Positions 1-14,094 are shown, counted from the stretch's first letter. The stretch is 14,094 nt of DNA from a virus (IMGVR_UViG_2565956714_000002:1-14094), one strand, 5' to 3'. Translations and numbers: made by a program. Notes: generated by a model from the letters alone, not told the origin.

Positions 1-1254
1 ATGCTGGAACAAATGGGCATTGCCGCGAAGCAAGCCTCGTATAAATTAGCGCAACTCTCCAGCCGCGAAAAAAATCGCGTGCTGGAAAAAATCGCCGATG
101 AACTGGAAGCACAAAGCGAAATCATCCTCAACGCTAACGCCCAGGATGTTGCTGACGCGCGAGCCAATGGCCTTAGCGAAGCGATGCTTGACCGTCTGGC
201 ACTGACGCCCGCACGGCTGAAAGGCATTGCCGACGATGTACGTCAGGTGTGCAACCTCGCCGATCCGGTGGGGCAGGTAATCGATGGCGGCGTACTGGAC
301 AGCGGCCTGCGTCTTGAGCGTCGTCGCGTACCGCTGGGGGTTATTGGCGTGATTTATGAAGCGCGCCCGAACGTGACGGTTGATGTCGCTTCGCTGTGCC
401 TGAAAACCGGTAATGCGGTGATCCTGCGCGGTGGCAAAGAAACGTGTCGCACTAACGCTGCAACGGTGGCGGTGATTCAGGACGCCCTGAAATCCTGCGG
501 CTTACCGGCGGGTGCCGTGCAGGCGATTGATAATCCTGACCGTGCGCTGGTCAGTGAAATGCTGCGTATGGATAAATACATCGACATGCTGATCCCGCGT
601 GGTGGCGCTGGTTTGCATAAACTGTGCCGTGAACAGTCGACAATCCCGGTGATCACAGGTGGTATAGGCGTATGCCATATTTACGTTGATGAAAGTGTAG
701 AGATCGCTGAAGCATTAAAAGTGATCGTCAACGCGAAAACTCAGCGTCCGAGCACATGTAATACGGTTGAAACGTTGCTGGTGAATAAAAACATCGCCGA
801 TAGCTTCCTGCCCGCATTAAGCAAACAAATGGCGGAAAGCGGCGTGACATTACACGCAGATGCAGCTGCACTGGCGCAGTTGCAGGCAGGCCCTGCGAAG
901 GTGGTTGCTGTTAAAGCCGAAGAGTATGACGATGAGTTTCTGTCATTAGATTTGAACGTCAAAATCGTCAGCGATCTTGACGATGCCATCGCCCATATTC
1001 GTGAACACGGCACACAACACTCCGATGCGATCCTGACCCGCGATATGCGCAACGCCCAGCGTTTTGTTAACGAAGTGGATTCGTCCGCTGTTTACGTTAA
1101 CGCCTCTACGCGTTTTACCGACGGCGGCCAGTTTGGTCTGGGTGCGGAAGTGGCGGTAAGCACACAAAAACTCCACGCGCGTGGCCCAATGGGGCTGGAA
1201 GCACTGACCACTTACAAGTGGATCGGCATTGGTGATTACACCATTCGTGCGTAA
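1..1254 (+). CDS. proA: Gamma-glutamyl phosphate reductase (glutamate-5-semialdehyde dehydrogenase), complete, 417 aa
   Basis: Uninterrupted ORF from ATG at 1 to TAA at 1252-1254. The translation ([30 protein letters not shown] ... [14 protein letters not shown]) is recognised from memory as enterobacterial ProA. The position immediately upstream of thrW fits the known proA-thrW arrangement in E. coli. Confidence 0.95.
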
Positions 1255-1368: not shown

Positions 1369-1444
1369 GCCGATATAGCTCAGTTGGTAGAGCAGCGCAT
1401 TCGTAATGCGAAGGTCGTAGGTTCGACTCCTATTATCGGCACCA
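1369..1444 (+). tRNA. thrW: tRNA-Thr, anticodon CGU, 76 nt including 3' CCA
   Basis: The sequence GCCGATATAGCTCAGTTGGTAGAGCAGCGCATTCGTAATGCGAAGGTCGTAGGTTCGACTCCTATTATCGGCACCA has a 7-bp acceptor stem (GCCGATA/TATCGGC), a D-loop AGCTCAGTTGGTAGAGC, anticodon CGT at 1402-1404 and a T-arm GGTTCGACTCC. It lies 114 nt after proA. Confidence 0.92.
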
Positions 1445-1460
1445 TTTAAATCAATAAGTT
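1400..1460. other. Probable prophage attL region (3' part of thrW plus junction)
   Basis: The integrase stop codon lies only 14 nt past the tRNA CCA end. P22-type integrases use the 3' end of thrW as attB. Exact core boundaries cannot be set without the attR end of the prophage. Confidence 0.35.
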
Positions 1461-2622
1461 ACACATCATTAGTACCTTCCTTATTTTTTGACTGGGACAA
1501 ATTTGGGACCGATGGGTTCAGGATCGAGTCTATTTGCCGTGCGTGTTCGGTAAGGTGATTAGGTGCAAGGTGAGCATATCGACGAACCATTTCGATAGAC
1601 TCCCAGCCTCCCATTTCCTGTAACACTGACAACGGGACTCCGGCTTGAACCAGCCAACTTGCCCAGGTGTGTCTCAAGTCGTGAAATCTGAAATCATCAA
1701 TACCAGCCCGTCTCAGCGCCGCTTTCCAGGCTGTGTTTGCGTCATACCGCATCTTCCTTACTGTTGGCGCTTTCGTTCCGTCTGGTTTGGTACAGCTTTC
1801 CTTGTACACAAATACCCAACGGTGATGATTCCCGATTTGTTTTTTCAATACGCGACATGCAGTATCATTCAGCGCAACGCCAATTGCGCGGTTTGATTTA
1901 CTCTCTTCCGGGTTTATCCATGCCACCCGGCGCTGCATATCTATTTGTTGCCATTCAAGGTTGATGATGTTCGAGCGTCTTAAGCCTGTTGCCAGTGCAA
2001 ATTCAACAACAGACTTTAATGGCTCCGGACATTCATCAATCAGCCTTTGTGCTTCATGGGGCTCCAGCCAGCGGATCCGTTTATTCTTTGGTTGAGGCAC
2101 TTTAATAATTGGTGCCTTATCCAGCATTTTCCATTCACGCTCTGCGGCTCTTAGTAGGGCCTTTATAAATGAAAGATGCGTAGCCTTCGTTGCAACGGAC
2201 GCTGGTTTTGGCGTGTATTCTGGAACAGGTTTCCCTTTTTTTCTGCATGCTTCTGCCCTGAGTTTCCAGTTTTCCTCATGACGCCGGTTCGTCATTTTCT
2301 GCATTGCTGAATAAATTTTTGATTCAGTAATGTCTCTTAGTTGCATTCCTGCGAAATGTTGAAGCCAGAATCCGATCCGGCTTTTGTCATCGTCCAGTGA
2401 TTTTTTATGTGCTTTCTCTTCAAGCCACCTGACACACGCTTCCTCGAACGTTATATCAGGTATTTCACCAAGTTTGCTGACCCGCCATGCTTCAGCCTTT
2501 AGCTTGTCATGGAGTTCTGTCGCCTGCCTTTTGTCCTTTGTTCCAAGAGACTGTTTAAATCTTTTACCGTTCGGCAATGTGAAACTGGCGTACCATATTT
2601 CACCTCTGCGGAAGAGTGACAT
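1459..2622 (-). CDS. int: Phage tyrosine integrase, P22 Int type, 387 aa
   Basis: 387-aa ORF with start preceded by AGAGGAAAG. The N-terminus [50 protein letters not shown] and the C-terminal catalytic region [40 protein letters not shown] (tyrosine recombinase R...HxxR...Y motifs) are recognised from memory as P22-family Int. It is adjacent to thrW, the P22 attachment tRNA. Confidence 0.93.
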
Positions 2623-2849
2623 TTTCTTTCCTCTGTTATGCCATCACCCGCGCTCACCTGGACAGTATGCAGCGGAGACTGAAGAGCCGCAATGCAGGCT
2701 TGTCGTGTTGTGAGGTAAGGAGATTTATTCTTAGTGGGATCTTTGCGTGTTGCCTGAAGACGCCCTGTGCGTATCCAGTTAATGGCAGTCGGTCTGGATA
2801 TCTTGAGAAAATGACAGGCCTCATCGAGTGTGAGGCTGTATGGCTCCAT
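2499..2849 (-). CDS. xis: Excisionase (P22 Xis-like), 116 aa
   Basis: Start chosen at the internal ATG at 2849 ([37 protein letters not shown]...) because it has a strong RBS (AGAGGTGAAATA-ATG) and overlaps the upstream stop as TAATG. The six-frame ORF extends further to 2933 without an RBS. The 3' end overlaps int by 124 nt in another frame. Confidence 0.8.
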
Positions 2850-3154
2850 TATTTCACCTCTTGCTGTGACATTGTTGAGAAATGGATACCAGCTCGTTGC
2901 TGCCAGACGATCCAACCGAGAGTCATATCCCATGCCATGTATTCGTTATCGCCGTTTTTTGCTCTCCGACGATCTACTAAGTCACCAAAACGCTTTTCCA
3001 TGAATAATTCATAAGCTTCGCGTTCATCTGGTTCTACTTCCAGAGATAGGAGTGCGATTTCATAAGCACGGCGCTCAATATCGTCTCGCACGTCAAGGCT
3101 GCTGATACGCTCTTTAATTTCTTTAATCAGTTCTTTGTCGGTAAAAGTGGTCAT
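2849..3154 (-). CDS. yfdT: Hypothetical early-left protein, 101 aa (YfdT-like by length and position)
   Basis: 101-aa ORF with start overlapping the upstream stop (TAATG) and a GGAG RBS. It is the fifth gene of a block whose sizes and order match CPS-53 yfdP-Q-R-S-T. The symbol rests on that synteny, not on sequence identity. Confidence 0.55.
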   Translation of the reverse strand: MTTFTDKELIKEIKERISSLDVRDDIERRAYEIALLSLEVEPDEREAYELFMEKRFGDLVDRRRAKNGDNEYMAWDMTLGWIVWQQRAGIHFSTMSQQEVK

Positions 3155-3516
3155 TATGCTCCAGCCTCCGGTGCTTTTGGCATTACTGCCCAGTGAGTGA
3201 TATTGACGTTTTCAAGGTCCCCGACCTGAAATGTCCACTGCCATTCTCCGGTTTCTTTTTGTCCCCAGGTGTACCAGAGAGAACGCCAGCCAATCAGCCA
3301 GCCTTCTCCGTTAGCATCGAATAACAAAACACTTTCATTTGCTGGTGGCAGTTCAGTTGACACTGGTATTACTTTGTTTTCCAGTGCCGCACATTTAGCT
3401 TCAAGCGCGTCGAATTTACGTACCAGGTACTCAGCATTTGTTTCGTTCACTTTCAGATCTCGCGGTACACATTTCCCGCGAAGAAACCCTTCCATTTCGA
3501 AAACATTCATGCGCAT
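3154..3516 (-). CDS. yfdS: DUF551-like phage protein, 120 aa (YfdS-like)
   Basis: 120-aa ORF with a GGAG RBS 4-5 nt upstream of ATG 3516. The C-terminal segment WQWTFQVGDLENVNITHWAVMPKAPE resembles the conserved DUF551 C-terminal motif. Length and position match yfdS. Confidence 0.6.
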   Translation of the reverse strand: MRMNVFEMEGFLRGKCVPRDLKVNETNAEYLVRKFDALEAKCAALENKVIPVSTELPPANESVLLFDANGEGWLIGWRSLWYTWGQKETGEWQWTFQVGDLENVNITHWAVMPKAPEAGA

Positions 3517-4043
3517 TTGCGTAACTCCGATAACTCGTTAAAACGTTCCATAAACATCCCGTAGGCATGGCTAGGTGCCAGTGGAATCACGTTGAACATC
3601 TCTGTTGCCGGGATGCCTTCCAGTACAGGCCAGAAAGAGCCATCATCAAGCCCGAGATCGCGGCGTTCGGTTGCCAGCATGATAAGATCGGCATATTTCA
3701 CGGGCGTACTCATAACTGGGGGTAACCCGTATTTCTCACGGATTACGGCGTCAATTTTTTCTTCCATCCGTTTATAGTCAGGCAGAAGGCGTTTCAGTGG
3801 AGCGGGAATATCCTGGCAATACGCTTCTGTTGCATCATGCATTAACGCTTCAAAAGCAAATTCCTGCGGCACCAGCTGGCTGCAAAGCACCGCATGTTGG
3901 GCGACACTGTAGAAGTGAGAAAGATGACCGGCAAAGCGGCAGATATTTGAAAGGGAAACCGCGATATCGTTAATCACGATGTCGTCTTTATTTATCTTGT
4001 CATAATAAAAATGCTTCCCGGAAAAAGTTTTAATAAATGACAT
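3507..4043 (-). CDS. yfdR: HD-domain phosphohydrolase, 5'-deoxynucleotidase family (YfdR-like), 178 aa
   Basis: Start set at ATG 4043 (MSFIKTF...), which has the RBS GGAGAACAAA-ATG. The GTG at 4070 used by the ORF track has no RBS. The HD signature is present (HAVLCSQLV ... ALMHDATEAY). Length and context match E. coli YfdR. Confidence 0.8.
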   Translation of the reverse strand: MSFIKTFSGKHFYYDKINKDDIVINDIAVSLSNICRFAGHLSHFYSVAQHAVLCSQLVPQEFAFEALMHDATEAYCQDIPAPLKRLLPDYKRMEEKIDAVIREKYGLPPVMSTPVKYADLIMLATERRDLGLDDGSFWPVLEGIPATEMFNVIPLAPSHAYGMFMERFNELSELRKCA

Positions 4044-4170
4044 TTTGTTCTCCACGTATATGCGCTGCACCGCGCTGAGTTTGGGTAAAAGGAAGCCCTC
4101 ACCATCCGGTGATTATTGAGTTAATTACGTTTCCATAAATGCCCCCGCAGGGGCATTTGCAGTAATGAAA

Positions 4171-4995
4171 TCAGGCGGTGAAAGTACCAATAAAGGTTTC
4201 TACTTTGCTGTCTTTGAATTTTTCAACAAGCAGATCACGAAATTCGTTAGCCATTTCTTCCTGCACTGCTTCCAGCTGAATAATGCGCAGAACCAGTACA
4301 GGGCGATCACCAGTGATAATGCTGAGGCGTAATTTAAACGGACGTTCTTTCAGGCCTTCAAACGGAACGCATTTAAACTCAAATGCTACTGGCATAATGT
4401 CTTTGGTTTTCGCTTCGACAGACTCCATCAGAGAGCGTTTGCCGCTGAAGTCATTGTCTTCAAAATCAGCGGTCTGGTTTGCTTCAATCGTGATTTTACG
4501 GACCGCCGCAGCCGCTTTTGTTGCCTGAATGGCGTCACCATTAGCATCAAAGCCCACAAGGTAGTCGGCCCAGTCTTCAATCCATTCTGCCAGTGACTTC
4601 TGGGAGTTACGCTCGCCGTTAACAGACAACAGGGCAGAGAACGGTGCTGTCTTTTTCAGTTTGAGAGTGGCGGTGTTATCTGCGTGACCTAGTTCATCAA
4701 TAGTACCCAGGTTAAACACACTGACGGCACGCATATTATCAGCATCGATAAAGCAGCGGGTGCCTTCATCTGCAAGATCTTTAGAATAACGGGTAAAATC
4801 ATCGATGCTGGCAGTGGAAAGCGCACCACGGAAACGGAAGCGATTTAAATTAAATTTTTCCAGATCATGAATGCGGAAATTCTCAGGCAATGCCACAGCA
4901 TCGGCACCAATCTTACTGATAATTTCATTAACACCCTGAGCAGAAATAAGGGCATGGATTTGATTAATTGCGGTTGCGTCTAAGTTCTGAGACAT
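4171..4995 (-). CDS. yfdQ: DUF2303-family phage protein (YfdQ-like), 274 aa
   Basis: 274-aa ORF with RBS GAGGA 6 nt upstream of the ATG. The N-terminus [13 protein letters not shown] and the length match YfdQ of CPS-53 as I recall it. Confidence 0.75.
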
Positions 4996-5060
4996 AATAA
5001 GTCCTCACTATATAAAGATATTCAGTGATGAGATAAATAATCAGTTAATTAAGAACGATA

Positions 5061-5423
5061 TTAATGACCTGCTGCGCGTAGTTTTCCGTCAGGTTCACCG
5101 GCAAGAGTCAGTAATTGTCCCTGGTCTTCCTGCAGAATAGTCAGGCGACCACCGCGATTGACATACATCGGCGTTTCGGTGGTGTCTTCTTCGGAAATTT
5201 TCCCGCGGTTAGTCGGGCGAACATATGAGAGTTTGTGTTTGATTTTCACACGGTTCTCATCAAATGGTTCGATTTCCAGGTTGAGTGAGACCTTACCTTT
5301 GGTTTTCGTGTTCATCACACCGGAAGCGACTTCACTGAGAACTGCGCCGATTTTGGTTTCAAATACGCCGCCGTCCAGCTCCCCGATAAATGCCTGCACA
5401 TCAGTACTGCGTTCGCTAGCCAT
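5061..5423 (-). CDS. yfdP: Hypothetical early-left protein (YfdP-like), 120 aa
   Basis: Start set at ATG 5423 (MASERSTDVQAFIGELDGG...) with RBS GAGGAA 7 nt upstream. The 197-aa version in the ORF track is an N-terminal read-through into noncoding leader. It is the first gene of the leftward operon. Confidence 0.7.
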   Translation of the reverse strand: MASERSTDVQAFIGELDGGVFETKIGAVLSEVASGVMNTKTKGKVSLNLEIEPFDENRVKIKHKLSYVRPTNRGKISEEDTTETPMYVNRGGRLTILQEDQGQLLTLAGEPDGKLRAAGH

Positions 5424-5471
5424 TTTGCTGTTCCTCATCATATCGACCCTGCAAGGTCGGTTGGTTTCTCC

Positions 5472-5570
5472 ACAAAACAGAGAAGAACACCTGCGGTGGC
5501 AGCCGCCCGGATGGATTGGGTTATGAGCCCGTCGTCCGGTGATGCTCTTCTCTGTTTTGTAAAAAGAGCG
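5472..5570 (-). promoter_or_regulatory. BoxA-like motif followed by a large hairpin in the leftward early leader (candidate antitermination or processing element)
   Basis: On the minus-strand transcript the sequence reads CGCUCUUUUUACAA, then a perfect 15-bp stem (arms at 5472-5486 and 5546-5560) enclosing 59 nt. CGCUCUU is the core of nut and rrn boxA. Function is inferred only. Confidence 0.3.
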
Positions 5571-6024
5571 GTACCAGCCGGAAGCAAGTGTACAAACTGG
5601 TACCGCCAAAGCAGTGGCTGTTGTGGTGGGGTTGTCACTCAGGCGTATGGTCAACCTGACAATCCGGTGTCCTCAACGGGGAAAGAGTAACCCCGCCATA
5701 CTTACCGCCGCGCCATTTCGCGGATTACCACAACGCTGAGAGCACTTAGCCAGTTACGGCACCACACTTTGTCGCGGCTCCATAAATGCCCTCATCGTTG
5801 CACCCTGGTCTCTTCCCAGGCGTCAAACCGAATCGCCACGCTGGTTAGGCGTCTTATCAGCATCATCATTGACTTGCACATTCCGGCTACCTGGTTTGTT
5901 TGCCCGAGCAAGGAGTGGATTGTCCCCTTTAACGTCCCCAGACCGCTAACGACGCATGTGCCATACGCCGTGTTACAACCAAATTTTTTTTGAATCTTGC
6001 CTGCCTCATGTTTCTTTTGGATAC

Positions 6025-6052
6025 ATTATGTATCTCATGGGTACATTGTCAA
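6025..6052 (-). promoter_or_regulatory. Candidate pL-type leftward early promoter
   Basis: Read on the minus strand: TTGACA (6052-6047), 16-nt spacer, CATAAT (6030-6025). It overlaps a 17-bp operator-like dyad. Confidence 0.45.
6029..6045. promoter_or_regulatory. Operator-like 17-bp dyad (OL candidate), TGTATCTCATGGGTACA
   Basis: It shares the pattern TGTAY-N7-GTACA with two sites in the cI-cro intergenic region. It overlaps the candidate pL -10 and spacer, and also the separate perfect palindrome GATACATTATGTATC at 6020-6034. Confidence 0.45.
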
Positions 6053-6056
6053 GTAT

Positions 6057-6078
6057 AAAAAAACCTGCCGAAGCAGGT
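6057..6078 (-). terminator. Intrinsic terminator downstream of the repressor gene
   Basis: On the minus strand: ACCUGC-UUCG-GCAGGU (6-bp stem, UUCG tetraloop) followed by seven U (6063-6057). It begins 14 nt after the cI stop. Confidence 0.55.
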
Positions 6079-6091
6079 TCATATATATTGA

Positions 6092-6766
6092 TTAGGCCTT
6101 TATTGTGTATCTTCTTGGTTTTCCCGAGAAAATCACTGTACCAATTATAGAGCAATTACCGTTAATCTTAATGTAAGGCTCAGGCCAGTTTGGGTTTAAT
6201 GCTTTGAGATAACGCTGTGTTCCATCTTCTATCAATCGCTTGAAGGTGGTTTCGCCTGTATCGTGCATCAATGCAATAACGTCGTCACCGTGGCAGGCAG
6301 GGACTTCGGGATCAACAAAAATCATGTCTCCCGGGCGGTACTCATCAATCATTGAATCACCAATCACCCGCAAGATATAAGTCATTTCGCCACAGGGTAC
6401 AGGGCAGGGATAAGTTTCTGCTGTGCTCAAATCAACCTCAGAATAGCCAACTTCTTTCCATGCTCCGGCCTGTACCCATGATATGACAGGGACTAACGTT
6501 ATTTGTTTGTTAGTGATTGAAACATCAGGTTTTTTTGTGATGTTCGTTGTCTGGTGTTCTTGATCAAGCCATCCGACAGGCAGGTCGAAACATTTTTCGA
6601 TGTGCCGTGCCATGCTGTCACCGATATTTTTAGTAGCGCCATCCCCCATAAACCTGCTGGTTTGGGTTGGCTCGCGATCAATCATGGTGGCAAAGGATGA
6701 ATTTCCGCCAACACCATCTCTCAGTTTTCTGGCGTTAGACCGCCGGATGTCATGGATTGTTTTCAT
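6092..6766 (-). CDS. cI: CI-type prophage repressor with N-terminal HTH and C-terminal S24 (LexA-like) autopeptidase domain, 224 aa
   Basis: The C-terminal region VIGDSMIDEYRPGDMIFVDPEV ... GETTFKRL aligns by eye with lambda CI and LexA (Ser in GDSM, Lys in FKRL). A candidate Ala-Gly cleavage site lies in WVQAGAWK. It is divergent from the cro-like gene. There is no Shine-Dalgarno before the ATG at 6766, which suggests a leaderless mRNA. Confidence 0.9.
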   Translation of the reverse strand: MKTIHDIRRSNARKLRDGVGGNSSFATMIDREPTQTSRFMGDGATKNIGDSMARHIEKCFDLPVGWLDQEHQTTNITKKPDVSITNKQITLVPVISWVQAGAWKEVGYSEVDLSTAETYPCPVPCGEMTYILRVIGDSMIDEYRPGDMIFVDPEVPACHGDDVIALMHDTGETTFKRLIEDGTQRYLKALNPNWPEPYIKINGNCSIIGTVIFSGKPRRYTIKA

Positions 6767-6783
6767 AACGAAATTAAAACCTT

Positions 6784-6800
6784 TGTACCGATAAGGTACA
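6784..6800. promoter_or_regulatory. Operator-like 17-bp palindrome TGTACCGATAAGGTACA (OR site)
   Basis: Perfect inverted arms TGTACC/GGTACA with a 5-bp spacer, in the cI-cro intergenic region, overlapping the predicted pRM -35 position. Confidence 0.5.
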
Positions 6801-6806
6801 AGTATC

Positions 6807-6834
6807 TTGAAGGTTCATTTCAATCATGTAATAT
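6807..6834 (+). promoter_or_regulatory. Candidate pR-type rightward early promoter
   Basis: TTGAAG (6807-6812), 16-nt spacer, TAATAT (6829-6834), reading into the cro RBS GGAGG at 6842-6846. Confidence 0.45.
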
Positions 6835-6850
6835 GTATACCGGAGGTACA
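6834..6850. promoter_or_regulatory. Operator-like 17-bp site TGTATACCGGAGGTACA (OR site)
   Basis: Matches the TGTAY-N7-GTACA pattern. It overlaps the pR -10 and start region and the cro RBS. Confidence 0.45.
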
Positions 6851-6856
6851 TATTGT

Positions 6857-7057
6857 ATGAAAGCGTATTGGGACTCTTTAACCAAAGAACAGCAGGGCGA
6901 GTTGGCCGGAAAAGTTGGCTCAACACCTGGCTACTTACGGCTGGTTTTCAATGGTTATAAAAAAGCCAGTTTTGTGCTGGCTAAAAAACTTGAGCAATGC
7001 ACGTCAGGTGCAATTACGAAATCTGACTTAAGACCGGATATCTATCCGAAAGATTAA
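6857..7057 (+). CDS. cro: Cro-like / YdaS-family small DNA-binding regulator, 66 aa
   Basis: Start at ATG 6857 with GGAGG 10 nt upstream. The protein MKAYWDSLTKEQQGELAGKVGSTPGYLRLVFNGYKKASFVLAKKLEQCTSGAITKSDLRPDIYPKD has an HTH and the C-terminal DLRPDIYP motif typical of YdaS/Cro-like proteins. The 101-aa version in the ORF track starts inside the operator region and lacks an RBS. Confidence 0.8.
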   Translation: MKAYWDSLTKEQQGELAGKVGSTPGYLRLVFNGYKKASFVLAKKLEQCTSGAITKSDLRPDIYPKD

Positions 7058-7088
7058 CAGAACACCTTCAATTTTTAACCACAGAACG

Positions 7089-7652
7089 ATGAGGCTAACC
7101 GTGGGTAAGCATCACTGGAAAGTAGAAAAACAGCCTGAGTGGTACGTGAAAGCTGTCAGAAAAACGATCGCGGCGTTGCCGGGGGGTTACGCTGAAGCTG
7201 CTGAGTGGCTGGATGTAACAGAGAACGCTTTATTCAACCGCCTTCGTGCAGATGGCGATCAGATTTTCCCGCTGGGATGGGCAATGATTTTACAGCGCGC
7301 GGCTGGCACTCACTACATTGCGGATGCTGTCGCACAGTCTGCTGGTGGGGTGTTTGTATCGCTTCCTGAAATTGAGGAAGTAGAGAACGCCGATATAAAC
7401 CAGCGCCTGCTGGAAGTCATCGAACAGATCGGGAGTTACTCAAAGCAGATTCGTTCGGCAATTGAAGATGGGGTAGTGGAGCCACACGAGCAGACAGCAA
7501 TTAATGATGAGTTGTATCTGTCAATTTCGAAGCTCCAGGAGCATGCAGCACTGGTCTACAAAATCTTTTGCGCTCCAGAAAAGAGTGACGCCCGCGAGTG
7601 TGCAGCTCCGGGCGTCGTGGCGTTTTGTGTCTGTGGAGAAACTAACGCATGA
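7089..7652 (+). CDS. CII-like regulatory protein (YdaT / phage CII family), 187 aa
   Basis: It follows cro as ydaT follows ydaS in Rac. An HTH-like segment is present (GGYAEAAEWLDVTENALFNRL). An alternative GTG start at 7101 has a better RBS (GAGG). The family assignment is from memory and is moderate. Confidence 0.55.
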   Translation: MRLTVGKHHWKVEKQPEWYVKAVRKTIAALPGGYAEAAEWLDVTENALFNRLRADGDQIFPLGWAMILQRAAGTHYIADAVAQSAGGVFVSLPEIEEVENADINQRLLEVIEQIGSYSKQIRSAIEDGVVEPHEQTAINDELYLSISKLQEHAALVYKIFCAPEKSDARECAAPGVVAFCVCGETNA

Positions 7653-13672: not shown

Positions 13673-14094
13673 CCTCGCGCATACAGCCGGGCAGTGACGT
13701 CATCGTCTGCGCGGAAATGGACGAACAGTGGGGCTATGTCGGGGCTAAATCGCGCCAGCGCTGGCTGTTTTACGCGTATGACAGTCTCCGGAAGACGGTT
13801 GTTGCGCACGTATTCGGTGAACGCACGATAGCGACGCTGGGGCGTCTTATGAGCCTGCTGTCACCCTTTGACGTGGTGATATGGATGACGGATGGCTGGC
13901 CGCTGTATGAATCCCGCCTGAAGGGAAAGCTGCACGTAATCAGCAAGCGATATACGCAGCGAATTGAGCGGCATAACCTGAATCTGAGGCAGCACCTGGC
14001 ACGGCTGGGACGGAAGTCGCTGTCGTTCTCAAAATCGGTGGAGCTGCATGACAAAGTCATCGGGCATTATCTGAACATAAAACACTATCAATAA
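13591..14094 (+). CDS. insB: IS1 InsB reading frame, 167 aa (expressed mainly as the InsAB' transposase by -1 frameshift)
   Basis: The translation [25 protein letters not shown] ... HYLNIKHYQ matches IS1 InsB, with the stop at 14092-14094. Confidence 0.93.
13648..13654 (+). other. IS1 programmed -1 ribosomal frameshift heptamer A AAA AAC
   Basis: AAAAAAC lies in the insA/insB overlap (TTAAAAAACTC), the known IS1 frameshift motif. Confidence 0.85.

Follow-up and report, generated by a model that had tools for sequence, protein, structure and literature searches.

A P22-type thrW integration cassette joined to a CPS-53-like yfdPQRST block in the remnant of a probable SfV/SfIV-type lambdoid prophage of Escherichia coli

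The closest described relatives of the locus analysed here are the serotype-converting phages of Shigella flexneri, SfV (NC_003444, Allison et al. 2002) and SfIV (NC_022749, Jakhetia et al. 2013), and the SfIV paper reported a conserved integrase (Int) and excisionase (Xis) together with a "cluster of unknown genes" common with SfV. A 46-bp phage attachment site (attP) has been reported for SfI, SfIV and SfV (PMC3851460). The yfdR/Q/P cluster is common in the early-left operons of lambdoid phages (PMC12315714), and the homologous genes of E. coli K-12, carried by the prophage CPS-53 (KplE1), were studied by Noguchi and Katayama in 2016, who noted the SfV homologues and suggested a role in an ancestral phage (PMC4776307). 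Here we describe the left arm of a prophage in IMGVR_UViG_2565956714_000002:1-14094, a stretch of viral DNA of 14,094 nucleotides (nt) that we call the window. We conclude with good confidence that the locus represents the attL-proximal arm of a lambdoid prophage of the SfV/SfIV type in E. coli thrW, where a P22-type recombination cassette and the widespread yfdP-Q-R-S-T block are joined at a TAATG sequence, and we propose that the genes would form a leftward operon that may act on DnaA.

The window was compared with K-12 CPS-53, P22 and SfV, using blastp for proteins and blastn for DNA, and its open reading frames (ORFs) were scanned with Pfam, PHROG and NCBIfam profiles. The window Int is 89.9% identical to P22 Int and 98.4% identical to SfV Int, ungapped over all 387 amino acids (aa), and the 116-aa Xis is 87.1% identical to P22 Xis. 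Similarity of Int and Xis to the CPS-53 proteins IntS and TorI was not significant (Int against IntS, E = 0.94). At the DNA level, the attP-int-xis segment of P22 matches window 1399-2849 with 80.5% identity, the homology beginning at 1399 inside thrW and ending at 2849, exactly at the xis start codon. Homology to SfV likewise starts at 1399. The 46 bp at 1399-1444 are identical in the attP of P22 (21293-21338 of the P22 sequence) and of SfV (4001-4046 of the SfV sequence), and in an intact relative, NZ_CP182387, this attachment (att) core is doubled as attL and attR, 42.4 kb apart. Both the P22-like character of Int and Xis and their location at thrW had been predicted from the window alone, and the comparison of the int-xis block with P22 places it in the P22 family.

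The original prediction also identified the five genes to the right of xis, by their sizes and order (101, 120, 178, 274 and 120 aa), with the early-left block of CPS-53. The coordinates proved exact, and each of the five proteins aligns with its K-12 counterpart over the full length and without gaps, at identities of 96.0-99.2% (Table 1). Chance similarity is excluded by E-values of 0. The corresponding CPS-53 DNA is 97.3% identical to window 2793-5442 over 2650 nt and reaches 57 nt into xis. Within the block, yfdR overlaps yfdS and yfdS overlaps yfdT, while the yfdT stop codon and the xis ATG share TAATG, with a GAGGTG Shine-Dalgarno sequence before the ATG. The overlaps and the TAATG joint indicate that the int-xis and yfd modules are fused at a gene boundary to give a single tightly packed leftward unit. 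A longer xis ORF of 144 aa (extending to 2933; SfV annotates 147 aa) was ruled out as an in-frame extension over the 3' end of yfdT. The 116-aa form is preferred because P22 homology ends at 2849 and the GAGGTG sequence precedes that ATG.

In the original prediction the K-12 block sat at argW beside a different integrase and excisionase, and exchange of integration cassettes between lambdoid prophages was proposed. The description of K-12 holds in part: torI does adjoin the block, but intS lies at the opposite end of the prophage and a P22-type xis stub, ypdJ, is retained. This stub (46 aa; positions 12095-12235 of the NC_000913 segment 2464000-2478000) is 89% identical to the xis-frame ORF of the window and covers Xis codons 1 to 18, the start codon being ATA in place of ATG, after which the similarity ends. 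Across the circular phage map, a second stretch of homology between SfV and K-12 (82.5%) spans gtrB and gtrA and extends about 125 nt beyond gtrA on its upstream side, where the second junction lies. The shared sequence on both flanks defines the exchanged unit, in which the 3' part of xis, int and attP(thrW) stand against torI, attP(argW) and intS. With both junctions mapped, the proposed exchange of integration cassettes was confirmed.

The presence of an 18-codon xis stub beside yfdT in K-12 shows CPS-53 to be the derived form, torI/intS having replaced xis/int. We also considered the reverse direction, in which an argW phage resembling CPS-53 recently donated its yfd block to a P22-like thrW phage, making the window the derived recombinant. 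In its favor, P22 has eaC and ea genes, not yfdT, beside xis, and since P22 homology ends exactly at the xis start, one or other block must have been joined to xis at some point. However, the codons that CPS-53 keeps beside yfdT are of P22 type with a destroyed start codon, so the yfdT-xis joint predates the torI/intS arrangement. Furthermore, among 5426 complete E. coli genomes, 1172 (about a fifth) carry the joint (window 2499-3154, coverage of at least 80%), as do several phages. We therefore regard the reverse direction as very improbable. The thrW int-xis and yfd combination appears to be the common, ancestral-looking form, with CPS-53 a probable decayed relative, and the direction of the CPS-53 cassette swap is readable from the ypdJ stub.

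What the block might do is suggested by work on the K-12 proteins, which are 96-99% identical to those of the window. DnaA binds YfdR specifically, in a manner dependent on Phe46 of DnaA domain I, and purified YfdR competes with DiaA and DnaB for DnaA (PMC4776307). Initiation is also inhibited in vitro when extracts contain an excess of YfdQRST (PMC4776307). According to the original prediction, the YfdQ-YfdR pair has been reported to bind DnaA and to inhibit the initiation of chromosomal replication when overexpressed. The paper exists, and it does describe inhibition of initiation in vivo by multicopy genes; it is YfdR, not the pair, that binds DnaA, and inhibition needs yfdQ and yfdR together with either yfdS or yfdT (PMC4776307). 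The window YfdR differs from that of K-12 at only two residues, G158S and D170E, and retains the HD motif at residues 69-70. Given these two differences and the intact motif, the K-12 DnaA activity can reasonably be carried over to the window YfdR, and near-identity makes it reasonable to extend both DnaA binding and oriC inhibition to the window block as a whole.

We propose that, once CI repression is lost, transcription would start at a leftward promoter just downstream of cI and pass through the structured leader into a single operon that extends from yfdP to int. YfdR, a predicted HD-domain 5'-deoxynucleotidase binding DnaA domain I, would act with YfdQ and either YfdS or YfdT to hold back initiation at the host oriC early in lytic development. 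Meanwhile, Xis and Int would excise the prophage.

The region between cI and yfdP contains candidate elements for such control. A terminator at 6080-6061 lies directly 3' of the cI stop codon, and a leftward promoter candidate, TTGACA-16-CATAAT, is found at 6052-6025 with 11 of 12 consensus positions. Two 20-nt repeats (6007-6046) lie over this promoter, and one further copy is located between cI and cro at 6832-6851 (oR). Together the promoter and repeats look like pL/OL. The 595-nt leader folds better than shuffled sequence (z = -5.1) and holds a long hairpin with 25-bp arms at 5472-5496 and 5536-5560, as well as a terminator-like hairpin at about 5563-5607 that is followed by CUCUUUUU. Homology across the leftward leader has its boundary at 5442 for K-12, at 5608 for SfV and PhiR29 and at 5628 for mEp460. 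An Rfam search of the pL-yfdP leader returned no family over threshold, nor any at E <= 1 on the transcribed strand, and neither an N-type antiterminator nor a known put-like RNA was identified.

Several points weigh against the proposed operon and its role in host replication. By itself, purified YfdR failed to block initiation in vitro, and deletion of yfdQRST gives no replication phenotype, the DnaA effect having been seen only with multicopy or overexpressed genes (PMC4776307). The putative pL and its operators are consensus matches. The leader has a hairpin resembling a terminator, and since an N-type antiterminator was not identified, we have to assume that transcription reads through into yfdP. 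The present analysis establishes sequence identity, the edges of the modules and the order of the genes; pL control, the operon and the role in phage development are features that we infer, and any part in phage growth or in the physiological control of host replication would be hypothetical. In addition, two substitutions, L94F and P102L, are private to the window YfdQ and lie next to an invariant GHADN motif. Leucine and proline occupy these positions in K-12, SfV, mEp460, PhiR29, the intact relative and the representative of a 10,812-member cluster, and at least 90% of a diverse set of 34 YfdQ homologues keep P102. The window YfdQ may be impaired by these changes, perhaps as gene decay in a dead prophage. 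Nor did the YfdQ fold yield a functional lead. PDB entry 9o7m, "YfdQ Protein", consists of 36 chains of a 274-aa homologue that matches the window YfdQ with E = 3.9e-44, and a search of the available literature for this entry turned up no associated paper. The 9o7m structure may already explain DUF2303.

The missing deletion phenotype and the inactivity of purified YfdR alone would also be expected if the block were mainly a nucleotide-pool or DNA-metabolism module, in which YfdR works as a deoxynucleoside monophosphate (dNMP) phosphatase and binds DnaA only as a by-product of overexpression. YfdR has an HD/YfbR-like signature, matching phrog_318 (dNMP phosphatase) at 5e-110, YfbR-like/HD_3 profiles below the Pfam cut-offs and PDB 2gz4 at 4e-14, and RefSeq names the protein "5'-deoxynucleotidase". 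In contrast, binding between purified YfdR and DnaA depends on Phe46 and competes with DiaA and DnaB, and the phenotype requires YfdQ and either YfdS or YfdT, which bear no enzyme signature. We consider a mainly metabolic module doubtful, yet far from negligible. The absent phenotype of the chromosomal K-12 deletions may have another explanation. CPS-53 has no equivalent of window 5443-9453, which includes pL, cI, cro, cII, ash and the 5' part of an O-like gene, and the K-12 yfd genes have thus lost their native pL/cI control region. This loss may account for the null replication phenotype, and it is relevant to interpreting the yfdQRST deletion.

The remaining proteins of the block provided few clues. 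YfdT and YfdP lack any Pfam or NCBIfam domain match or PHROG function, and searches with YfdP, YfdS and YfdT against PDB sequences returned only noise. PADLOC defence models gave zero matches across all five yfd-block proteins, leaving a known defence system unsupported.

The prophage is rich in Chi sites (GCTGGTGG), with 12 between 3341 and 12851, 8 on the plus strand and 4 on the minus strand, compared with 0.58 expected, and none in the host and IS1 parts of the window. The prophage of NZ_CP182387 (5424-47837 of the segment compared) contains 21 (15 versus 6 by orientation), all in its early 17.6 kb, and P22 contains 0. The block occupies the early-left position usual for Rec modules in a prophage that lacks recognisable Rec genes, which would suit an unrecognised homologous-recombination system that replaces the missing Red/Erf module. 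The 36-chain assembly of the YfdQ homologue in 9o7m points the same way, as large oligomers are typical of annealing proteins. Profile scans (Pfam, PHROG and NCBIfam) detected no single-strand-binding protein (SSB), nuclease, annealing-protein or anti-RecBCD gene in any of the ORFs between cI and xis. We rate a recombination function of the yfd genes as extremely improbable.

The replication module has a single O-like initiator at 8672-9529 (+), with HTH_36 and a DnaD-like C-terminal region, and no helicase or helicase loader was found within it. In this it matches the 34 "O-only" lambdoid phages, for which the mode of replication is reportedly not understood (PMC12315714). YfdPQRST may be the missing piece for such phages: by occupying the DnaB/DiaA-binding face of DnaA domain I, YfdR would shut oriC and free DnaB (or DnaA) for the phage origin. 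We put this forward as a long shot. If true, it would tie an "O-only, no Rec module, Chi-rich" lifestyle to the yfd block, and a strict O-only link would be weakened if Stx2c-type phages, which also carry the block, have the usual loader.

The copy in the window was placed in context using its 20.8-kb source locus on scaffold KE705258.1 (GCA_000457305.1), to which the window is 100% identical. A complete 768-bp IS1 lies at 13342 in the Q gene without a 9-bp target-site duplication, a 52-aa Q fragment matches Phage_antitermQ, and host acetyltransferase and yaiP genes (yaiX/yaiP region) follow directly after IS1. An attR with a second thrW segment had been expected at the right prophage end. None was found: the window and the source locus hold a single copy of the att core, and IS1 joins the Q fragment to host yaiP. 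Truncation, not membership in a different family, explains this absence. The combination of IS1 without a target duplication and adjoining host genes indicates that the late genes and attR were deleted or displaced by an IS1-mediated deletion or rearrangement, and the host DNA between thrW and yaiP was possibly removed as well. In the DUF968/HNH gene one base pair is missing at 12894, by comparison with NZ_CP182387, where the gene is intact and encodes 329 aa; the deletion splits the window gene into ORFs 12213-13025 and 12917-13207. The prophage/IS1 junction had no exact match in species-representative genomes, and no record was found for the 52-aa Q'-IS1 fusion ORF. The 96-aa C-terminal ORF of DUF968 turned up in many unrelated contexts, the source locus not among them, whereas the privately mutated YfdQ led to that locus. 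The window copy is a 12-kb dead remnant, so its yfd module can amount to no more than a set of cryptic-prophage genes, as in CPS-53 itself.

The state of this remnant bears on whether the block has been retained because it helps the host, as in stress tolerance, instead of for a phage function. The yfd genes are intact in the window while Q and DUF968 are broken, and deletions of yfdQ and yfdS in K-12 were reported to raise sensitivity to hydrogen peroxide or methyl methanesulfonate (cited in PMC4776307). However, the block is 97-98% identical in active phages (SfV, SfIV, PhiR29 and the Stx2c phages), so its conservation is explained by recent phage origin, and the two private changes in the window YfdQ fall at conserved sites. 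Retention for host benefit is therefore unlikely in our judgment. The active relatives SfV, SfIV and PhiR29 offer a natural system in which the role of the block in host replication during phage development could be studied.

Table 1. Features of the prophage left arm and its surroundings in the window
Feature	Coordinates	Strand	Evidence
proA, opens the window	1-1254		
thrW, tRNA-Thr(CGT), host attachment target	1369-1444	+	ARAGORN; Rfam tRNA 71.8 bits
attL core, 46-bp 3' segment of thrW restored by phage DNA; prophage homology reaches left to this point	1399-1444		Identity with SfV and P22 attP
int, P22/SfV-type tyrosine integrase, 387 aa	1459-2622	-	Pfam Phage_integrase 3.2e-48, profile positions 1-171 of 172
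xis, P22-type excisionase, 116 aa	2499-2849	-	phrog_2907 excisionase 1.1e-50; HTH_17
Part of xis retained in K-12 (about 57 nt, ypdJ), K-12 cassette-exchange junction	2793-2849	-	blastn and blastp
yfdT homologue, 101 aa	2849-3154	-	96.0% to K-12 YfdT, 100% to SfV orf28; phrog_660, function unknown
yfdS homologue, 120 aa, C-terminal DUF551 domain	3154-3516	-	98.3% to K-12 YfdS
yfdR homologue, 178 aa, predicted HD-domain 5'-deoxynucleotidase	3507-4043	-	98.9% to K-12 YfdR
yfdQ homologue, 274 aa, DUF2303 (8.7e-91)	4171-4995	-	98.5% to K-12 YfdQ
yfdP homologue, 120 aa, starting at an internal ATG of the longer ORF 5061-5654	5061-5423	-	99.2% to K-12 YfdP, 100% to SfV orf32; phrog_204, function unknown
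Structured leader of the putative leftward operon	5424-6018	-	Fold z-score, inverted repeat, homology boundaries
Candidate pL promoter and two operator-like 20-nt repeats	6007-6052	-	Consensus match
cI-type repressor (LexA/S24 type)	6092-6766	-	Peptidase_S24 1.5e-26; SfV cI region 97.7% nucleotide identity
IS1 in the Q antiterminator gene, truncating the prophage	13342-14094	+	IS1 end sequence

Two Rfam families scored above their gathering thresholds, the isrK Hfq-binding RNA (63 bits) at 8009-8085 (+) and the C4 antisense RNA (82 bits) at 8110-8197 (+). Both lie inside the ORF 7649-8485, just upstream of and within its Ash-family domain. The pair may be an antisense control element of the early-right operon, resembling immI of P1/P7.

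The arrangement described here is ordinary. The mosaic singled out in the original prediction is not newly seen: the same int-xis-yfd arrangement is already published in SfV, SfIV and SfII, the last of which matches window 1399-5608 in part. The thrW att site, DnaA binding by YfdR and the Chi-rich, Rec-less class are likewise already published, and the locus carries little weight as a discovery. Most of the whole window is found at proA-thrW in 48 genomes. The yfd block also occurs with other integration cassettes, namely in PhiR29/Kati, with a 74%-identical integrase, in mEp460, with an unrelated arrangement, and in Stx2c phages.

Comparison with the known systems shows where the parts of this arm recur. 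P22 shares the 46-bp thrW att core, the lengths of Int and Xis and the 124-nt int/xis overlap, but beyond xis it has eaC and other ea genes, the Erf/Abc recombination module and no Chi sites. CPS-53/KplE1 carries yfdP-Q-R-S-T in the same order, and the yfdO'/yfdN/yfdM region is also common to both (window 9454-10286, 97.2%). In contrast, CPS-53 is integrated at argW by IntS and TorI, which are unrelated to the window Int and Xis, and it has only the stub of xis. In the K-12 segment yfdP abuts the truncated replication gene yfdO (segment position 9586).

The no-Rec/high-Chi LLS class (PMC12315714; Bobay et al. 2013) is similar in its early-left yfdR/Q/P-type genes, in having no recombinase or anti-RecBCD gene and an O-like initiator only, and in that no N homologue is seen. 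Judged on a 12-kb remnant and one relative, not on a viable phage, the prophage shows the hallmarks of this published lambdoid class, which is defined by at least 8 Chi sites in the active orientation and few in the other, and it differs in its immunity and structural modules. In the closest intact E. coli relative, NZ_CP182387 (4033500-4083400), the same left arm and early region are joined to lambda-like siphovirus head and tail genes. Near attR this relative carries genes for a GIY-YIG protein and an AraC regulator along with an IS fragment, as opposed to the Mu-like tail and gtr genes of SfV; no gtr genes are present at its right end, and in the window copy the right end was deleted or displaced by IS1. 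NZ_CP182387 appears to represent further mosaicism within early regions that are 98% identical.

The closest match remains that to SfV and SfIV. The cI/cro/cII/ash/replication region at 5995-9207 is 97.7% identical to SfV, whereas the window leader segment 5609-5994 stands where SfV has orf33. Over window 1399-5608 the DNA identity to SfV and SfIV is 98.1-98.2%, with the same 46-bp attP/thrW core, int, xis and orf28-32 (equivalent to yfdT-P), in the same order and with the same overlaps.

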